Positions 42,800-60,618 of a stretch of DNA of 64,000 nucleotides are shown here, in pieces. The stretch's first letter is position 1; every line of letters begins with the position of its first letter. This DNA comes from Cyanidioschyzon merolae (taxonomy: Eukaryota). The DNA lies in the NCBI GenBank assembly GCA_000091205.1, contig AP006484.2; one strand, written 5' to 3'. The notes under the pieces are model-generated. The model was not told where the DNA came from, ran no database searches, and saw nothing but the letters and a program-made list of their open reading frames with translations. The position numbers and the translations under genes are program-made.

Positions 42800-45379
42800 T
42801 TGTACCTGTGGGCGGAAACGAGCGGCCTCCAGTGCCGCGCTGTACGTTCTTTTCTGAACCGGACGGCGCTCGGGGTACCGGCTCCGAGAGCTACTGTGGA
42901 AGCTCTGCTGTACGTTTCCGTTGGGTTCGGCTTTGCGTCTCAACGGGGAACGATCGCTCTCCGCGCTAGGGTCTCGCTTTGCATGGAGGCGGAACAGAAA
43001 CCAACAAAGGATGTCACCACTGGTCGCACCGACGGAAGCGCATCCACTGAAGAAAGCGCAACAGCGTCTGTAGCCGGCTCAGCTGAGCGAAACACGAGTG
43101 CATCACGCGCTGCAACTTGTTGTGGAGCGGACGCTTTACCCAGTAGCCGGGCTGTCCTAGCACGGAACGTCTCCGAGAGTCCTGACCAGTCGGCGGAAAC
43201 CTTGGTTGCTCGTCTCGCCGCTACCAAAGCCGAGCTCGAACGAACGCGATCAGAGTATGCGGCATACAGAGAAAGCGTTCAGCGAACGTTGGCGCTCATC
43301 CTACCAGAAAAGCCCTTTGTGATTGCGTTTGAGGCCCTTCGTCGAGGCTACACCACGGTCAGGGACACCCAGATCGTCCGTGATATGTGCCAACGAGTGA
43401 ATGGACCTCAATGGGATGCCATTTTCGAATCGTTCTACCAAGCTGTGCTGTATTACCGCGAGTTACGACCGTCTTCACTTGTCCAACGCGATGCCGACCT
43501 GCCGCAGGACTGGTTTCGCGAGCCTTGGTACTGCCTCTACCCACAGTTCATGGGCACGGAGCAGGATGATGTCCTAGCCAAAGTGCACAGCTTTCGTGAC
43601 CTGATCGATCTTTTACCTTACTGGGAGGCACTCGGGATACGGAATTTGTCGCTGCTTCCTCATTACGACAGCGACTGGGCTGACGGGGGTTACGACGTTC
43701 GTGCGTATCGGCCTCATCCGGCGCTTGGTGGTCTCGAGGCGTTCCAGGAGTTCGTCTCGGCGGCAACGCAACGCGGGTTTCGCCTCATGACGGAGGCTAT
43801 ATTCAGTCATACGGCAACCGATCACGAGTGGTTTCAACGCGCACTTCGCGGCGAGTCGCGATACCTTCGCTACTATCTCCGGCGCGATGGAAGGGAGAAA
43901 ATTGGGGAATACGAGCGCAACGGGGAAGTCATCTGTCGGTATCGAGACCCTGACGGCACCATCACCGAACGCATATGTTTGTTCCCTGATATTGACCGTA
44001 CGCATGGACTTTGGGTGCAGGTTAAGAGACAAAACGGGTCCGTTGCGTCGGAGAAGAACGAAACCAGCACGGAGACGGTTCAGTTCTATCGCACTTTTCT
44101 TCCATTTCAGGTCGATCTGAATCTCCAAAATCCAGATGTTTTGCAGGAATTTTTCCACCTCCTCGGTGAAGAGTTACAGTTGGGAATTCTCGGCAAGCGT
44201 ATAGACGCAGTGGCGCACTGGGTCAAGCGTCCCGGAACCCCCGGCGATGGACTCCCTGAAACCCACACTCTTCTGGCGCTCTTCAAGTCATTCATTCATC
44301 ACCTGTGTCCACGCGCAGTGCTGATGCCCGAGGCCGTACGACCCAACCATATCGCCAGCCAATACGCTGGTATCGGAACGGAGCTTTGCGGAAATACGCG
44401 CAGCTCTGAGGGCGATCTTGTCCTCTGCTTTGAGCTGCAGGCAGCGCTTCGTGAGATGCTCTGGTTCCGTCGAACGGCGCCCTGGTGGCGTGTTGTACTG
44501 CAACTTCCCAAACTACCGGCAGGCGCGGATTGGTGCGTTCCGTTTGCGCACCACGACGATATTTATCTGGGGTTCTTTGAGCCATCGGTGCGTGCTGACG
44601 CAGTCCAGTGGATACGCACATGTGGCGGGCTCGTCTACCGTGGCGGCATCTCGGCGGCGTGTAGTGAGTACGACCTGCTGGCGAGGGATCCGCGGCGCCT
44701 GGGCCTGGCGTTTTTCATCTTGCTCGTGGGTGTCGGCACGCCGTTCCTCTACCAGGGTCTGGAGCTTGGAATGAGTAGTTCCTTTGATTATGCGCGGTTG
44801 CAGATGCAAAGACGCTACGAGCGACTGAAGAAATGCGGCGTGCTGGTAGCAGAGGGCGCCTGTATGGATCCTCGCGACCTTCATCGTGGTCCGATCCCGC
44901 GGGCTCTTCTCTGGGAAGCTCTGGAGCAGAGCGAGGCCCAGGGCTATCAAGTACCGACCAGGCTGGGGTTCGGTGTGGCGATTCTTCGACAACTGAATGC
45001 GCTGCGCTCGGCGCGGCCCAGTTTGCGTTCGGGAAGCATTCAACCGATTGATACCGGTCGTGCGGAGATTATCGCGTTTATTCGGCATCATGGCTCACGG
45101 GACGGTCCATTGTTGTGTGCAGCGAATCTTAGTGATAGCGAGGTCGAGATGGTTACACCGTCGTGGCAGCTAGGGGCTTATTTAGGGACCAACACCGCAA
45201 CCGACTTGGTCTGCAGCGATCTCCTGCGAGATGCTGGCACTTTTGCGGTTCCAGACGGTGAGCGGGAAGCGTCGGGCGCCCAGAAGAGGTTGCGTTTACA
45301 GGGCACCGGTTACGTGCTTCGTCTTGAGCCGCTTGCGATGCAGATTCTAGAGCCGAGCAAGCCCACGCGTCAGAAGTAG
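42800..45379 (+). CDS. Amylosucrase-like GH13 enzyme (GH13_4-type alpha-amylase family) with a roughly 200-aa N-terminal extension. The true start may be the internal Met at about 42983.
   Basis: VLAKVHSFRDLIDLLPYWEALGIRNLSLLPHYDSDWADGGYDVRAYRPHPALGGLEAFQEFVSAATQRGFRLMTEAIFSHTATDHEWFQRA and ...LGKRIDAVAHWVKRPGTPGDGLPETHTLLALFKSF align block-for-block with Neisseria-type amylosucrase. The matching amylosucrase blocks are LFGKVNNLRDLIPYLQELGVTYLHLMPLF...DGGYAVSSYRDVNPALGT...FIFNHTS-EHEW and [30 protein letters not shown]. Confidence 0.8.
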   Translation: MYLWAETSGLQCRAVRSFLNRTALGVPAPRATVEALLYVSVGFGFASQRGTIALRARVSLCMEAEQKPTKDVTTGRTDGSASTEESATASVAGSAERNTSASRAATCCGADALPSSRAVLARNVSESPDQSAETLVARLAATKAELERTRSEYAAYRESVQRTLALILPEKPFVIAFEALRRGYTTVRDTQIVRDMCQRVNGPQWDAIFESFYQAVLYYRELRPSSLVQRDADLPQDWFREPWYCLYPQFMGTEQDDVLAKVHSFRDLIDLLPYWEALGIRNLSLLPHYDSDWADGGYDVRAYRPHPALGGLEAFQEFVSAATQRGFRLMTEAIFSHTATDHEWFQRALRGESRYLRYYLRRDGREKIGEYERNGEVICRYRDPDGTITERICLFPDIDRTHGLWVQVKRQNGSVASEKNETSTETVQFYRTFLPFQVDLNLQNPDVLQEFFHLLGEELQLGILGKRIDAVAHWVKRPGTPGDGLPETHTLLALFKSFIHHLCPRAVLMPEAVRPNHIASQYAGIGTELCGNTRSSEGDLVLCFELQAALREMLWFRRTAPWWRVVLQLPKLPAGADWCVPFAHHDDIYLGFFEPSVRADAVQWIRTCGGLVYRGGISAACSEYDLLARDPRRLGLAFFILLVGVGTPFLYQGLELGMSSSFDYARLQMQRRYERLKKCGVLVAEGACMDPRDLHRGPIPRALLWEALEQSEAQGYQVPTRLGFGVAILRQLNALRSARPSLRSGSIQPIDTGRAEIIAFIRHHGSRDGPLLCAANLSDSEVEMVTPSWQLGAYLGTNTATDLVCSDLLRDAGTFAVPDGEREASGAQKRLRLQGTGYVLRLEPLAMQILEPSKPTRQK

Positions 45380-49918: not shown

Positions 49919-50791
49919 CTACTCTGGAGGTCTTTTCTCCAGCACCGCACATCTCCTTATATTGATAGCGGCGTTAAAGTCTCTGTTAACAAATTCCATA
50001 CGTTTCTTGCCATCATTGGTTGTACTTACTAGTGCAAGTAGTCCTCGAACTTTTGCCATCCTTTCCATTTGCTCGTCTGTCAGCGGTCCGTACTTTGCGA
50101 TTTCCTCAGGGCTCCACTGGCACTTTTCCATCTCGACCCTCTGAAGTCTACACCCCAGTTCATGGTGCGTATACGATGTTCGGAACTCATCTACGGATAT
50201 TGTAACGAAACGTCGTGCACACTCTTTGTACACCCTCGTCGTTGGAGAAGACGTATTCTCTTTCTTGGGCGCCCAGCGCCCTGCCCCATACGCTACTACG
50301 AGCCTCTGACTCTCATCCTCCTTCAAGGCGACCAACTGATTGAAAAAGTTGGCAAACGCCCGCTGTTTCCCGCCGTATAGATTCATTCGCAAACGAGCCC
50401 ACCGGGGCTTGGTATCCTCCTCCCACAGCGCATCCCAATGAGCAACACGAATTTCCATGAATTTCCGAAAAGCTTCAAAGTCCGCTCCTCGGCTCGTCAC
50501 CTCGCTCAAAGCTCCCAGGTGATCCTTCATTCCTGAATTCCAAGTCTCGATTTTCTTCCTCGCATTCATCATTCCCAATTCTCGATAGTATCTCGCTCTC
50601 GAGAACCCCAAAAGACGCATGTCTTTCTGACGCAAGTTACCGTCAATGCCATCTTCCGCACGCTTTGGTGCTGCGATGGTTATGATATTCGTGTTCCCAG
50701 GGTCCGCGCCAACGACAAAGTCGTTATCCTGCACTTTCTGTGTCCGAGGGCCCGCCTTCTTGTTTTCTACATGCTTCGCCGCGCCAACCAT
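49919..50791 (-). CDS. RuvC-nuclease segment of a TnpB/Fanzor-like protein (C-terminal 290 aa)
   Basis: RuvC-I: VVGADPGNTNIITIAAP (compare GIDxG). The pre-zinc-finger motif is SVDEFRTSYTHHELGC (compare VDPRYTSQTC in TnpB). RuvC-III: FVNRDFNAAINIRR (compare DxNAAxNI). A CTGGAG-7nt-CTCCAG hairpin at 49924-49942 overlaps the last codons. The stop codon is TAG at 49919-49921. Confidence 0.75.
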   Translation of the reverse strand: MVGAAKHVENKKAGPRTQKVQDNDFVVGADPGNTNIITIAAPKRAEDGIDGNLRQKDMRLLGFSRARYYRELGMMNARKKIETWNSGMKDHLGALSEVTSRGADFEAFRKFMEIRVAHWDALWEEDTKPRWARLRMNLYGGKQRAFANFFNQLVALKEDESQRLVVAYGAGRWAPKKENTSSPTTRVYKECARRFVTISVDEFRTSYTHHELGCRLQRVEMEKCQWSPEEIAKYGPLTDEQMERMAKVRGLLALVSTTNDGKKRMEFVNRDFNAAINIRRCAVLEKRPPE

Positions 50792-51160
50792 AAAGGCGTT
50801 ATCCTACACCTCCTGCATCACAGGATCCGCCTCCTTCTCGTGTTCACCCTTGGTCACGTTAACGACAAAGTCGTTATCTTGCACTATCTGCTTCTCAGAA
50901 CGCGCCTTGTTGTTTTCTTCATGCTCAGACAGGCCAGCGACAAGGTTGTCATCCTCCACCTCCTGCATCGCAGGACCAGCCTCCTCCTTTTCTTCATCCT
51001 TCGTCACGTCAACGACAAGGTCGTTATCCGCACCTCCTGCGTCGCAGGATCCTCCTCTTTGTTTTCTTCATCCTTCGCCACGTCAAGGACGAGGTCATTA
51101 TCCTCCACTTCCTATGTCGCAGGACCAGCCTCCTCCTTTTCTTCATCCTTTGTCACGGGC
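50700..51160 (-). repeat. Internal tandem repeat inside the Fanzor-like gene: about 6 units of 75-78 bp encoding an acidic 25-26 aa module ([25 protein letters not shown]...)
   Basis: Repeats are visible on both strands. The plus-strand ORFs 50646-51248 and 50771-51205 show reiterated DKVVILHLL and TTKSLSCT strings. The minus-strand frames give [13 protein letters not shown](M/T)QEVEDDNLV units. Confidence 0.85.
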
Positions 51161-53832
51161 GCAGCCGAGGGCGCAACTGGCCGATCTCCCTTCAACGGCC
51201 GATAGTGTATACACAAGGCTACTCCATCGGTTTCAATCATCCCGCTGAACAACTTCTGCTTGCTCACTCTCAGAGGTTTGAAATCGAAGATGCTCTTCCT
51301 GTACGTCTCCCGGTTTTTACCAGAGAATTCCTCTGTGCTAACATTGGACTCTGGACTGATCTCCTTCATGATGCCATGAAGGACGCCGGAGTTGATAGTC
51401 ACAAAATGTGACTCGATCTTGCACATTGGAACCACGTTGAAGCGCTTACCCATTAGGACAGACTTCCGTCTCTCCCACTCTTCATTTGTCTCTTCACTCA
51501 GCTTCATCTCCGCTTCGCGTTCGAGTTCACGGTCCAAAAACACAAGATACCGCAGGGAGAGGCGATAGTATTTTTCCTTATCTATTTTCAACTCTGATAC
51601 CTTTTCTGTTGGATTCACCAGCCCCAAGACTGCACGGTGCTCTTGTATAGCCGCACGGGTTACAGAAGCTTCATTCGTGCTCCCTTTTGACGTCTACTTG
51701 TCGACAAATTCGACCTCACCTTGATGCTTGCGATCTCTCGTGATGCCATTGATCATCGCCCATATTCCTTTGCGAGAGATACCTGGGTAGAGTGCAACCG
51801 CGGCGCGTACTATGAAACATTCGAGGATCACTGTCAAATGGTTCTTCAGATTCGTGAGGTACTTCATCGCTCCGTATGTGTAAATACCCTGGCCACCCTT
51901 GTATCGATTACCCTCGAAGCGGAATTCCGCGAAGTTTTCGTGGAGGCCGTCCACTAGCACATTTTCCTTCCGCGCTTCCGCTGTACCAAAGATGAGGTAA
52001 CGAAAAAAGGTCTTTTCGAAAAACTCGTCCGGAATCTCGACCGTTTCCATGTGCGTCACGTCGCGATACATCTCCCTCGCTAAATGCATCAGTCCTGACG
52101 ACGCCTCTATAATACTCTTGGAGTCCGAATCGACACGGTTTCTGATAGCGTCTCGCAAATTTTCTCTGCAGGGATCCTTGACATGTCCAAGAAGAGAGGT
52201 ATTCACAACCATCTCGTTGTACAGTCGTCTTTCTTGCAGCCTTCGACGCAGGACCTTCCCCTTTTGGGTCTTCTTCTCTTCCTTTTCTCCTGGACTCGGC
52301 ACTGTTTTTTGTTTTTTCTGGCAGCCTGCGACCCTGGGCCTCCAGGATCGTCGACTTCCTTTTCATAACTTTTCTTTTCTAGTTTTTTTAAATGAACCCT
52401 CTGTGAACGCTTCTGTTATATACTGCGAAAAATCAATCGAATATTTTCACTTGAGGGTTGAAACACAATCGAACTAAAAACTATACTTGCCTATGAAATT
52501 AACGAAAATACAACTTTTACACGAGAGCTAGACGCTAAAGATCAAGATCACGTTTCCCTTCAACGGCGGCGCGCGCGTCGTGTCTCATATCTGCCCCAAC
52601 TCTCAGGTACGCTCATCGAGCGCGATGCATGCGCTGCGCGAGACGCCTCATCGATCGATGAAGGACACGTGTCCGACACCCCGCCTTGGCATATGCGTGT
52701 TTGTATCGCGCTGCAGCTGAAGTAAAGTATCGTAGATTGGAAACTCACGTAGAGTAATCTCTTGCTATAGGCTCTGTCGCTGGTGCCGAAGCTACTGCCC
52801 ATCGCAGTACCGCCTTGACATACATGGAGATGTAGGGGCCTGGCACGATACCCCTCGACGCTTCTATCAAAAGCGTAGCGTTCTCTGCGGCTTACGCTTG
52901 TCTGGATAAGGTACGCATCACTCTAGCCTTGAAGAGTTTCGTTAGTTTTATTGATCGTAAACAAACAAGGGACGGTAGGATTCCTGAACACGGACATACG
53001 TTTAATTCCTATGCTTGTTATGCATGCCGCACGGACGCTGGAATAAGGACCTGACCTGAATTTTGCTTCTATCCCGCGTCATGGGCTAGAACCGATGATA
53101 GTTCAAGTCATTTCCATGCTATCGTCGTTGTCCAAGTTATGATGCCCGCTACGTCCCCCGGATCCGGTGGTCTCGGCAGAGGCATACCACATATGTGGCG
53201 TCCATATCTGCCACGACGTTTGAGCCTTGCATCTCGCCTGGCACGATCGAGGCATCCGGCAATAGCACATATTGTGTTCTGATCTACTCTATAAGATTGG
53301 TTTCAAGAGCCTAACCCGTACATCGAGCCCGGAAGCGACATAGCCAACAACAAATGCCTTTGAAAAGAAAAACTTTTTCGCCGGCCGTGCAGAGTAGTGG
53401 CGAGTGACCCGCCCCAGACATGACGTGTCCAACTGACGTGCAGACGCTTCCAAAATAACGTAGCGCCGGAGGAAATTCCTTTACACCTCCTCTACGTTAT
53501 TCGTCAGTGAGCTGCTGCGACGTGTCTTCACGATAATTGTGATCTCTGAACTCAGCATCGCGGAGCGCTGACCGACCAGTACTGACGAGATTGTTGCTCG
53601 GAAAACAGCGAGTTTTGCCTAGTTTCTGAGAAATACTTTCAGCGCTTGTGCGGGTTGTGCTCAAAGTTGGACAGTCCAGGGGAGATTGAGGTCGGCATCA
53701 GCACCAATGGACGGGCGATCACACGTGCAGCAACGCAAAAGATGTTTTCGACTGGATATGCACACCTACGCGAAAGACTCTAGCCGGTGACGTGATCGAC
53801 AGCTTTGCACCGGAGAAAATCTAACCGAGAAA

Positions 53833-57831: not shown

Positions 57832-60618
57832 ATGTTTCGTGCTCGCTCTCTGGTACGTGCCCTGGGAGTAGCTGTTTGTCTATTGTTGGCGGCGACGTTT
57901 TCCGTGTCGGTTGTGGCTGCGTTGTCGCCTGTGAGTACGGTTAGCTGGACCTGGATAGGTGGAGAGACGGGTATCGATAATCCTGGTAATTATGGAACGC
58001 TGAACCAGACTTCAGCAGATAGTGTTCCAGGAGGCCGTTACTATTCTGCAGCCTGGGTCGGAAGTCCAAGCTTGGTATACTTGTTTTGCGGGGTTGGGTA
58101 TGGAAACCCATTTCCGAGCTACTTTAATGATCTATGGACCTTCAACTTGACCTCACATGAATGGACGTGGATTGGAGGCTCCTTAGACATCAACAATGTA
58201 GGAGTATATGGCACAGTCGGCACAGGCAGCCCAAATAGTATACCCGGCGGCCGTTACGGAAGTGCGTATTGGCAGACGGACGAGCAGCATTTCTGGTTGT
58301 TTGGTGGCTACGGCTTTGATGTGAACGGTAATGTGGGAGACCTGAACGACATGTGGCGGTACGATACTGAAACGGGAATCTGGACGTGGTTCAGTGGGAA
58401 TGATACTATTAACGCCGATCCAGTCTATGGACCGAAGGATATCTACAGTCAAATTTACAACCCCGGAGGCCGAGATAGCGCGGCATTCTGGCTGGGCGCG
58501 GATGGTCTTTTTTGGTTGTTTGGTGGTGAGAGAAATAATGGGCTGGATTATTTGTCAGATCTCTGGTCATTCAACCCTGTTACATTCGAATGGGCATACA
58601 GAGGCGGATCACAACTTGCTAACCAGCCTGGTAACTATAGTGCACCTGGCGTGGCGAGCAACTCAAATGCTCCAGGTGCGCGCGGCTTCTCGCATACGTG
58701 GACAGATTTTGAAGGAAATCTCTGGTTGTTCGGTGGCTATGGCTACGGAAACAGCACAGCACTAGGGCAAGGGGACTTGAATGATCTCTGGGTCTACAAT
58801 ATAAGTCAATCCGTATGGATTTTTATCGCAGGGAATACAACCATCTATGTACCTGGATCATATGGAAGTCTCGGTGATTTCTCGCCAACCAGTTACCCTG
58901 GTGCAAGAGACTCAGGCGTGAGTTTCGTAGATTCATTTGGTAATCTGCAACTGTTTGGCGGTGAAATATTCAACACTACGAATGGCAACTACGTCCTTTT
59001 GAACGATCTGTGGGTGTTCAATATCAAAATTGGTCAATGGGCGTGGATCAACGGAAGTTCAGCGGTTGATTCTTTAGCAGTATATGGAGTTTTGAACGAG
59101 ACCGGCTCGAGTGTTGTACCAGGCGGACGTGAAGGACCAGCCTTATGGAACACCAGTGGAACAGATCCGGTCATGTTTGGCGGATTTGGATACTCAAACA
59201 CTAGCGGACCTGGCTATCTCAATGATGTTTTCGCACTGAGTGAAACGTTCTTTACGCCTACCTCTACGCCTACGCCAACATCAACGCCAACTCCGACATC
59301 GACCGCAACATCCTCGGTAACCGCTTCATCTACGGCTACATCTACGATAACAGCAACCGTGACCTCGACGTTCACACTGACGCCAACGCCTACATCTACT
59401 CCCGTGTGCACCAATGAGATCTGCGGTTCCCCGGGACAGTACACGAACCAGGACGCTTGCGAGCAAGTCGGATGCTGCTTCAATCCCGAGACGAACGCGT
59501 GCACCCTGAAGAGCGTCTCAGCGGCCTGCAGCGCTGTTCCAGTGACGCAGCGCGTCCCCTGCGGCTGGAGCTACATCTACCCCGACGAGTGCACTGCGAT
59601 TCCGGGATGCTGCTGGCAGCCCACAGCGAACGGCATCCTCGCGCCCTGGTGCTACTACGACATCGACCATGCACCGCAGGCTTCTGTAGCGCTGCAGGAG
59701 GTGCAGGCACCGGTGCCCGTCTGCCCATCACCGGGAGCGCATCGCCAGCCGTGCGGCAACGCGGGTATCAACCAGTTTACGTGCTATGCCCAGGGCTGCT
59801 GCTACGACTCGCAGGCGCAGAACCAGTGGGTGCAGAACGGCAAGCAGCAGAGCGACTTTGCGTCGAACCCGTACTGCTTCCAGCCCGAGAAGACGTGCGC
59901 TGTGGGCGAGTTTGAGCGCCAGCCGTGCACGAACGCGGTGAATCAGAACCAGCAGCTGAACAATAACATCAACAATAACCAGTTTGTGCGTCTGCTGAAC
60001 ACGCTTCTGTACGGGGAGCAGCACGGGACGCAGCGCACGAGCTACTCGCCGCAGCAGTGTCTGGAGGCTGGTTGCTGCCTGGGGCTCGGTAACGAGTGCT
60101 TCCAGCCGATGACCGAGTACGTGTGCCAGACCTACGGGTACGTCTCGAACTCGCTGAGCGGCACGACCGGCAACGCGTCGAACTCGAGCTATATTGCTTG
60201 CGGCCCTGAGTGCTGCAACGCCGAGACGCAGAACTGTACGTACAACCCCTTCAGCAACAACAACAACCAGCAGCAGCAGCAGCAATTGCAACAACAGCAG
60301 CAACAACAGGTGCTGCTGCCGTCGTTCTGTGTGTGCAAGGACCCTACGAAGCAGTGCGGGACGTACCTGATCCCTTCGGATAACCTTGTGAACAAGGTGC
60401 GTTGCTGCCGCGCTGACGAGGAGTGCATCAACAACCAGTGTGTGGTGATTAGTCCAACACCGACTCCGAGTCCCGTGGCTGTGACAGCGACACCCTCTGC
60501 GACGGTGTCTGCGGCGGTGTCTGCGACGGTGTCTACGACAGCTTCTGCGGCAGTGTCTGCGACGATGTCTGCGAGAGCGTCAGCATCGGTTTCGGGTTCA
60601 GCTTCAGTGTCTGCTTGA
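57832..60618 (+). CDS. Secreted multidomain protein: signal peptide, Kelch/galactose-oxidase-type beta-propeller, Thr/Pro-rich mucin-like linker, four trefoil(P-domain)-like six-cysteine modules, poly-Q/N tract, and an Ala/Ser/Val-rich tail
   Basis: The N-terminus is MFRARSLVRALGVAVCLLLAATFSVSVVAA. Kelch blades carry reiterated W-x-W-I/F-GG and GG-x(n)-NDLW-x-(Y/F) motifs (WTWIGGE, WLFGGYG, NDMWRYD, WLFGGE, NDLWVYN, ...). The linker is TPTSTPTPTSTPTPTSTATSS.... One cysteine module, C-x8-R-x2-CG-x8-C-x4-GCCW-x10-WCY (CSAVPVTQRVPCGWSYIYPDECTAIPGCCWQPTANGILAPWCYY), fits the trefoil consensus. Three further similar modules follow. Confidence 0.65.
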   Translation: MFRARSLVRALGVAVCLLLAATFSVSVVAALSPVSTVSWTWIGGETGIDNPGNYGTLNQTSADSVPGGRYYSAAWVGSPSLVYLFCGVGYGNPFPSYFNDLWTFNLTSHEWTWIGGSLDINNVGVYGTVGTGSPNSIPGGRYGSAYWQTDEQHFWLFGGYGFDVNGNVGDLNDMWRYDTETGIWTWFSGNDTINADPVYGPKDIYSQIYNPGGRDSAAFWLGADGLFWLFGGERNNGLDYLSDLWSFNPVTFEWAYRGGSQLANQPGNYSAPGVASNSNAPGARGFSHTWTDFEGNLWLFGGYGYGNSTALGQGDLNDLWVYNISQSVWIFIAGNTTIYVPGSYGSLGDFSPTSYPGARDSGVSFVDSFGNLQLFGGEIFNTTNGNYVLLNDLWVFNIKIGQWAWINGSSAVDSLAVYGVLNETGSSVVPGGREGPALWNTSGTDPVMFGGFGYSNTSGPGYLNDVFALSETFFTPTSTPTPTSTPTPTSTATSSVTASSTATSTITATVTSTFTLTPTPTSTPVCTNEICGSPGQYTNQDACEQVGCCFNPETNACTLKSVSAACSAVPVTQRVPCGWSYIYPDECTAIPGCCWQPTANGILAPWCYYDIDHAPQASVALQEVQAPVPVCPSPGAHRQPCGNAGINQFTCYAQGCCYDSQAQNQWVQNGKQQSDFASNPYCFQPEKTCAVGEFERQPCTNAVNQNQQLNNNINNNQFVRLLNTLLYGEQHGTQRTSYSPQQCLEAGCCLGLGNECFQPMTEYVCQTYGYVSNSLSGTTGNASNSSYIACGPECCNAETQNCTYNPFSNNNNQQQQQQLQQQQQQQVLLPSFCVCKDPTKQCGTYLIPSDNLVNKVRCCRADEECINNQCVVISPTPTPSPVAVTATPSATVSAAVSATVSTTASAAVSATMSARASASVSGSASVSA

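Follow-up and report, generated by a model that had tools for sequence, protein, structure and literature searches.

Two described enzyme types of glycoside hydrolase family 13 (GH13) frame the comparison that follows: trehalose synthase (TreS; GH13_16; PDB entries 5x7u, 4tvu, and 3zo9) and amylosucrase together with sucrose hydrolase (GH13_4; PDB entries 1g5a, 3ucq, and 3czk). The gene considered here lies on the plus strand (42983..45379) of a 64,000-nucleotide stretch of the nuclear genome of the red alga Cyanidioschyzon merolae (GenBank assembly GCA_000091205.1, contig AP006484.2; hereafter, the window), and its 798-residue product matches, at 100% identity, the protein of C. merolae 10D that carries the annotation "similar to trehalose synthase" (P0001, on a 457,013-bp contig). 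The original prediction, made from the DNA sequence alone, assigned this protein to the amylosucrase type. Sequence comparisons place it instead in a distinct GH13 clade that belongs neither to GH13_4 nor to canonical TreS. We estimate at roughly 75% the probability that the protein is a catalytically competent (as predicted) retaining alpha-glucosidase/transglucosylase from a clade in which we found no characterized member, and that its gene was acquired once, from a bacterium, by the ancestor of the red algae. No solved structure falls into this clade.

Searches of solved structures lean toward TreS. With the single protein sequence as the query, the best matches are TreS chains (146 bits for 5x7u and about 137 bits for the Deinococcus radiodurans enzyme), compared to 72–91 bits for amylosucrases and sucrose hydrolases; with a profile of 26 family members, the respective scores are 190–232 and 120–153 bits, and hhalign scores a TreS-like set at 680 and the amylosucrases at 328. 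These scores favor the annotated function, namely that the protein is a genuine TreS (maltose alpha-D-glucosyltransferase, EC 5.4.99.16) that interconverts trehalose and the maltose derived from floridean-starch breakdown. However, the TreS-leaning similarity is shallow, because the protein fails the NCBIfam TreS equivalog model TIGR02456 (158.5 bits against a cut-off of 678.35), a true amylosucrase scores higher on that model (212 bits), and the identities are equal across the groups compared. On the same model, a TreS-Mak fusion included as a control reaches 938 bits, and the window protein and its bacterial relatives span 110–175 bits. In a trimmed alignment of 624 columns, the family is 22–24% identical to canonical TreS, amylosucrases, and alpha-glucosidases alike (with a mean of 22% for the amylosucrases), and the window protein itself shows 25.6, 24.0, and 25.1% identity, respectively, that is, 24–26% throughout.

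In bootstrapped neighbor-joining trees computed from Kimura-corrected distances, the 88-member family forms a clade with 100% support, the amylosucrases form a separate clade that is also supported at 100%, and canonical TreS fall outside the family. Given these separate clades, an identity to amylosucrases no higher than that to TreS or alpha-glucosidases, and profile scores that favor TreS, the assignment to GH13_4 is not supported. The outcome against which the original prediction had been set, a eukaryote-wide GH13 clade remote from the amylosucrases, is realized in part: the protein does lie away from the amylosucrases, but its clade is red-alga-wide rather than eukaryote-wide and is nested within bacteria. 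As a claim of membership, the database label "trehalose synthase" is unsupported as well. A set of matches of about 570 amino acids from the profile search was considered as TreS and rejected, with 254–281 bits on the TreS model; these sequences were retained as a separate TreS-like group.

As judged from the alignments, the window protein has an intact catalytic apparatus for the retaining transfer of alpha-glucosyl units. Residues (numbered here along the 798-residue protein; adding 61 gives the numbering of the 859-residue open reading frame) were mapped to the Neisseria amylosucrase (NpAS), with a residue numbering that we take to be the standard one for that enzyme; the position of the nucleophile Asp within RMDAV corresponds to an offset of 8, and the expected letters are present in a 90%-identical sequence. 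The predicted catalytic nucleophile is D408 (codon at 44204..44206; NpAS D286), which is invariant in the family alignment, the predicted general acid/base is E450 (44330..44332; NpAS E328), and the predicted transition-state stabilizer is D525 (44555..44557; NpAS D393), all encoded on the plus strand. Together with H276 and H524, these residues are invariant or nearly so in the family, which is the residue pattern expected of GH13. The entire −1 subsite is kept, with D234, Y237, H276, F372, R406, D408, E450, H524, D525, and R631 corresponding, in this order, to NpAS D144, Y147, H187, F250, R284, D286, E328, H392, D393, and R509. Among these residues, D234 (43682..43684, plus strand) and R631 (44873..44875, plus strand) are conserved and match the D144–R509 salt bridge of the amylosucrase type, which is predicted to close the −1 pocket. 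A salt bridge of this kind shuts the pocket in exo-acting GH13 enzymes; being common to these other enzymes, the pair is not diagnostic of GH13_4, but if it indeed closes the pocket, a single non-reducing glucosyl unit should be bound.

Outside the −1 subsite, the family departs from both described types. Its characteristic motifs are LPHYESP (LPFFPSP in TreS), GKRxDAVAHW (FRLDAxPYL), PEVVR (AEANQW), LEHHDE (LRNHDE), and GxE in place of GDE, and LEHHDE lacks the Arg that precedes HD in both TreS and amylosucrase. The +1 side is a mosaic, in which A411 is as in amylosucrase (Pro in TreS), H412 is specific to the family (Phe in amylosucrase and Tyr in TreS), and V452 resembles the amylosucrase Ile at a position where TreS has Asn. 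At the NpAS D394 position, directly after the catalytic Asp, C. merolae shares Asp with amylosucrase, and 34 of the 39 red-algal members have Glu, as does TreS. The latter Glu is a further point in favor of the annotated function. In contrast, all six canonical TreS compared have Asn two positions beyond the acid/base (N253 of the motif EAN in the D. radiodurans enzyme, which, from the titles of PDB entries, we take to be important), where 36 of the 39 red-algal members, including C. merolae, have Val. Moreover, the N-terminal helical domain and the enlarged domain B of the family are absent from TreS, in which domain B is smaller.

A proteomics paper of 2026 includes a "TS" step in the pathway scheme that it presents for C. 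merolae and describes the production of trehalose as speculative (PMC13306765). According to the Gracilariopsis genome paper of 2018, that alga has no trehalose synthase, an enzyme said there to be known from only a few bacteria (PMC5970526); nonetheless, the family member of Gracilariopsis chorda is annotated "Trehalose synthase". Our literature searches found no TreS assay of any member of the family. Taken with the failed equivalog model, the separate clade, and the Val at the position of the TreS Asn, this leaves TreS activity a possible but doubtful reading.

An amylosucrase or a sucrose-hydrolase-type (GH13_4-like) enzyme that acts on sucrose is less likely still. In addition to the separate clade of the amylosucrases and their profile scores below those of TreS, no residue of the window protein or of the family aligns with R446, the fructose-binding residue of NpAS, and most members have Glu rather than Asp at the D394 position. 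The evidence for sucrose comes from bacterial gene neighborhoods, which were compared by clustering the open reading frames around 14 bacterial loci and scanning the neighbors with profiles. In L012 (1812–6597), L016 (3213–7893), and L028, a duplicate of L016, a PfkB kinase is followed by a transporter of the MFS superfamily and then by the GH13 gene, on the same strand and almost abutting; the best match of the kinase is fructokinase (181–191 bits against a cut-off of 450), and that of the transporter is the sucrose/proton symporter family (92–95 bits against a cut-off of 511). Both matches are far below the curated cut-offs, and the lineage is only about 34% identical to the window protein; the operon is a hint only, because it is confined to this single lineage. 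No conserved neighborhood was found among the 14 loci, shared neighbors occurring only between closely related genome pairs, and none of the other loci has informative neighbors. A scan of metagenomes yielded 12 loci, three of which are C. merolae itself, and no evidence of an operon. To our knowledge, nothing indicates that sucrose ranks among the major metabolites of red algae. As a separate observation, L012, labeled as a gammaproteobacterial metagenome-assembled genome (MAG), and L016, a Melainabacteria MAG, share the operon at 74–79% protein identity and group together with 100% bootstrap support, which suggests a binning error or a recent inter-phylum transfer.

The retaining alpha-glucosidase/transglucosylase that we favor would act by double displacement, with D408 as the nucleophile, E450 as the acid/base, and D525 stabilizing the transition state. 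The D234–R631 salt bridge would close the −1 pocket such that one non-reducing alpha-glucosyl unit is admitted, and the substrate, most likely a small alpha-glucoside given the predicted pocket closure, would be a compound or disaccharide of the maltose, trehalose, or sucrose type that is isomerized, transferred, or hydrolyzed. No convincing organelle-targeting signal is present in the C. merolae protein, so the enzyme is probably located in the cytosol, the site of floridean-starch and soluble-sugar metabolism. Beyond this, we tentatively entertain a more specific proposal, to which we assign well below even odds: the gene could represent the eukaryotic branch of a GH13 subfamily, so far undescribed, whose reaction specificity is distinct (for example, that of a sucrose- or heteroside-type alpha-glucoside transglucosylase or isomerase, and not TreS), passed on by a deltaproteobacterial or myxobacterial donor to the red-algal stem lineage and retained in every red-algal class over a period exceeding 1 billion years.

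Several observations weigh against the reading of a competent enzyme from a single ancient acquisition. The trees are neighbor-joining only, with 24–57% support for the deep nodes that relate this family to TreS and amylosucrase and moderate support (69–72%) for the exact bacterial sister of the red algae. Region I (residues 270–277; 43790–43813) reads TEAIF[SG]HT in C. merolae, Cyanidiococcus, and the JGI relative P0003, and TDAVFNHT in all other members, which amounts to replacement of Asp by Glu and of Asn by Ser or Gly; the form in C. merolae and Cyanidiococcus, TEAIFSHT, could alter activity. Some red-algal homologs lack catalytic residues, as in P0028 with DHNE for HHDE, and 4–5 sequences lack the nucleophile Asp; these may be pseudoenzymes, paralogs, or errors of alignment or gene calling, and because of these few sequences, not every family member need be an enzyme. 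Furthermore, literature searches returned no biochemical data or assay for any family member and no paper on the biochemistry or the origin of the family.

With respect to the extent of the family, an exhaustive profile search of 1.84 billion representative sequences recovered about 65 clusters with scores above 290 bits, 650–800 amino acids long and aligned from the N-terminal domain onward, followed by TreS and TreS-maltokinase fusions at 195–260 bits. All named eukaryotic members are Rhodophyta, and they come from four classes: Cyanidiophyceae (Cyanidioschyzon, Cyanidiococcus, Cyanidium, and Galdieria), Porphyridiophyceae (Porphyridium), Stylonematophyceae (Rhodosorus), and Florideophyceae (Gracilariopsis, Gracilaria, and Eucheuma). 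Two Logan contigs that fall in the red-algal clade carry eukaryotic neighbors (oxysterol-binding protein, ribosomal S21e, NAC, and Prp19); the protein call of the Logan contig P0005 (1479 amino acids) was trimmed for the trees, as about 640 residues past the GH13 homology are low-complexity, high-GC read-through, a gene-calling artifact. On the bacterial side, P0021 resides in a MAG between PPDK, OmpA, and ClpB-like genes, and P0037 adjoins flagellar genes. A scan of GTDB species representatives gave 15 loci, among them Myxococcota MAGs at 41–46% identity and one deltaproteobacterial MAG, with further loci in Pyxidicoccus fallax DSM 14698, Hyalangium, Silvanigrellales, Melainabacteria/Gastranaerophilales, Saprospiraceae/Bacteroidia, and Gammaproteobacteria. 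Myxococcota, Silvanigrellales (Bdellovibrionota), Saprospiraceae, and relatives of Vampirovibrio are known for predatory or gliding lifestyles; several of the carrier lineages (L005–L019) share such traits, which may be a chance of sampling or may be ecologically meaningful.

The red-algal sequences form one clade with 92–96% support that is nested among the bacterial members. Their sister is a bacterial clade, itself supported at 100%, that includes P0083, a protein from a "Deltaproteobacteria bacterium" MAG; Myxococcota MAGs come next, and other bacterial groups lie further out. The simplest reading of this topology is one ancient transfer from a bacterium to the red-algal stem lineage. The gene had been put forward as a candidate for horizontal or endosymbiotic transfer, and it is the horizontal route that the nesting within bacteria supports. 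Descent from the cyanobacterial ancestor of the plastid draws on the five relatives labeled Cyanobacteriota (L008 and L013–L016), but four of these are non-photosynthetic Melainabacteria or Gastranaerophilales (L008 is labeled only Cyanobacteriota), and all five belong to a different subclade from the red algae. Because of this placement, and because no photosynthetic cyanobacterium, green plant, or glaucophyte was seen among the named relatives, an endosymbiotic origin is very improbable; the nearest bacteria are the deltaproteobacterial and Myxococcota MAGs. A survey of horizontal gene transfer in Cyanidiales mentions only a different alpha-amylase orthogroup.

The N-terminal region bears on the same question, as the original prediction had described it as an added, coiled-coil-like extension without a counterpart in the bacterial enzymes. 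This description fails for residues 107–176 (43301..43510), a helical domain of four helices that is common to the bacterial members and aligns clearly with them (C. merolae FEALRRGYTTVRDTQIVRDMCQRVNGPQWDAIFESFYQAVLYYRELRPSSLVQRDADLPQDWFREPWY compared to WAVLRGLTTKKDLADVKSMCREIQPERWAEIYVKFWDAVVEARAARPAALEARDAALPEDWFHEPFY in the bacterial P0021); the median length upstream of the barrel is 166 residues in bacterial members, equal to that in red algae. Sequence comparison thus indicates that this domain came from bacteria and is not a eukaryotic addition. Poor conservation beyond red algae is confined to the two segments that precede the domain. The first, residues 1–67 (42983..43183), is a disordered leader rich in Ser, Thr, and Ala, with a predicted local distance difference test (pLDDT) score of 31–43, that is conserved in no group (identity of 0.04–0.05 across groups; in red algae, occupancy of 0.30 and identity of 0.04). 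The second, residues 68–106 (43184..43300), is a single long amphipathic helix (pLDDT about 75–87) with hydrophobic residues at each seventh position (heptad register a = A,L,L,Y,V,I), so that the coiled-coil-like segment is indeed present. Over this helix, red algae show an identity of 0.18 to P0001 and bacteria one of 0.08, and the motif L..VV..Q.REI..LR..L..L of the red-algal consensus is kept in mesophilic red algae. This helix, whose motif is conserved mainly in red algae, may have a role in oligomerization.

The AlphaFold2 model, computed with the family alignment as input, is confident (pLDDT 83.7; predicted TM-score 0.82) and has the GH13 fold, with a (beta/alpha)8 barrel whose strand 3 is followed by domain B, and with a beta-sandwich at the C terminus. 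In this model, the disordered segment (1–67) and the long helix (68–106) are followed by four helices (110–172), the barrel from residue 182, domain B at about 298–372, and the beta-sandwich from about 684. In terms of coordinates, all on the plus strand, the first part of the barrel (residues 177–297; 43511..43873) carries region I with H276 as well as D234 and Y237, which belong to the −1 pocket. The enlarged, beta-rich domain B (residues 298–372; 43874..44098; strands within 305–369; alignment columns 490–560) contains the motif RNGREKI..DRDGDIVCRYRDPDGT..FPD.DRTHGLW. The remaining barrel (residues 373–683; 44099..45031) comprises region II (GKRIDAVAHW), region III (MPEAV), region IV (HHDD), and R631, and the beta-sandwich domain C (residues 684–798; 45032..45376; strands within 686–791) gives weak matches to the Pfam domains DUF3459 and Malt_amylase_C. 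Within domain B, an insertion at residues 349–362 (44027–44068, KRQNGSVASEKNET...) is confined to Cyanidioschyzon, Cyanidiococcus, and P0003 and is shorter in Cyanidium; its pLDDT falls below 50 solely at residues 353–356.

With regard to the gene itself, the mechanical open reading frame is uninterrupted over 42800..45379 (plus strand; 859 amino acids from a TTG start). The first in-frame ATG is at 42983, where the database protein begins; there is none in 42800..42982 (plus strand), which is probably a 5' leader and not coding. The coding sequence, delimited by this ATG and by identity to the database protein, is intron-less and comprises 798 codons plus TAG, and its product is recognized by PF00128, the Pfam model of the GH13 catalytic domain, with E=1.2e-25 and 91.1 bits (cut-off, 22). 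The gene is flanked by open reading frames of the eukaryotic housekeeping type (SPT6, NOG1, a SacI phosphoinositide phosphatase, and S-adenosylhomocysteine hydrolase), along with a Myb protein. GC content (0.572) and GC at third codon positions (0.598) resemble those of the neighbors, and the codon frequencies match the neighbors with a cosine of 0.965, the top value among all window genes. An identical protein, over all 798 residues, is encoded in three independent JGI metagenome contigs (L022–L024; Ga0078972, Ga0207433, and Ga0080006); thus, C. merolae-like genomes are present in those samples. The C. merolae protein has no entry in the supplement of a TOR proteomics study.

The gene is real, intact, intron-less, and host-integrated in C. 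merolae, and a GH13 enzyme of bacterial ancestry inside a eukaryotic nuclear genome, with neighbor-like GC content, is what had been predicted. Bacterial contamination, or a decayed, non-catalytic relic, might be suspected from bacterial relatives at 41–46% identity and from the odd substitutions in region I. Yet the housekeeping genes on the same sequence, the native codon usage, and the orthologs in four red-algal classes effectively refute a contaminant, and the intact reading frame with every catalytic and −1 residue, together with the identical sequence in three independent metagenomes, renders contamination or decay a negligible prospect.

Two further features of the window were observed at some distance from the gene. 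At 57832–60618 (plus strand), a 928-residue open reading frame combines Kelch/galactose-oxidase-type beta-propellers with two Trefoil (P-type) domains, an unusual pairing for a red alga; Trefoil domains are frequently found with glycosidases. Relative to the rest of the window, the stretch at 50001–52000 is strongly skewed in the negative direction for both GC (−0.217) and AT (−0.172), and it overlaps a minus-strand open reading frame of 290 amino acids (49919–50791) without a Pfam match.

The name "trehalose synthase", under which the gene appears in red-algal genomes and pathway schemes, has a weak similarity as its basis, and the protein fails the curated TreS model. If the enzyme acts otherwise, the inferred red-algal trehalose route needs revision, and a conserved enzyme of carbohydrate metabolism lacks an assignment; if the enzyme has a specificity of its own, an unrecognized conserved step would be implied in the soluble-carbohydrate metabolism of red algae. 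Furthermore, the family offers a clean case of a gene that passed from a bacterium to a eukaryote long ago and became fixed throughout a phylum, and the deep GH13 clade could inform the divergence of the TreS and amylosucrase transglucosylase types.

Compared to the known systems, the present one is not of a new kind: the fold is that of an ordinary-looking glycoside hydrolase, and the gene had already been annotated. The substantive results are a distinct GH13 clade with no characterized member found, and, as the sequence comparisons indicate, a single ancient transfer fixed in red algae and an N-terminal domain of bacterial origin. Outside the family, the nearest sequences belong to a bacterial GH13 group without known function, here denoted 'INTER' (P0096–P0128), at 25–26% identity and of similar length; compared to the family, its N-terminal region is shorter (median of 106 residues), its scores on the TreS model are higher (278–326 bits), and its motifs are TreS-like (FRLDA, RvHDE, and GDE). 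The four-helix N-terminal domain of the window protein aligns with the all-helical N-terminal domain of amylosucrase at low hhalign confidence, except for the last helix, and structural alignments cover 87 more residues with amylosucrases than with TreS, a comparison of lengths and not of residues. The family looks like a pairing of a TreS-leaning sequence with an amylosucrase-like domain layout.

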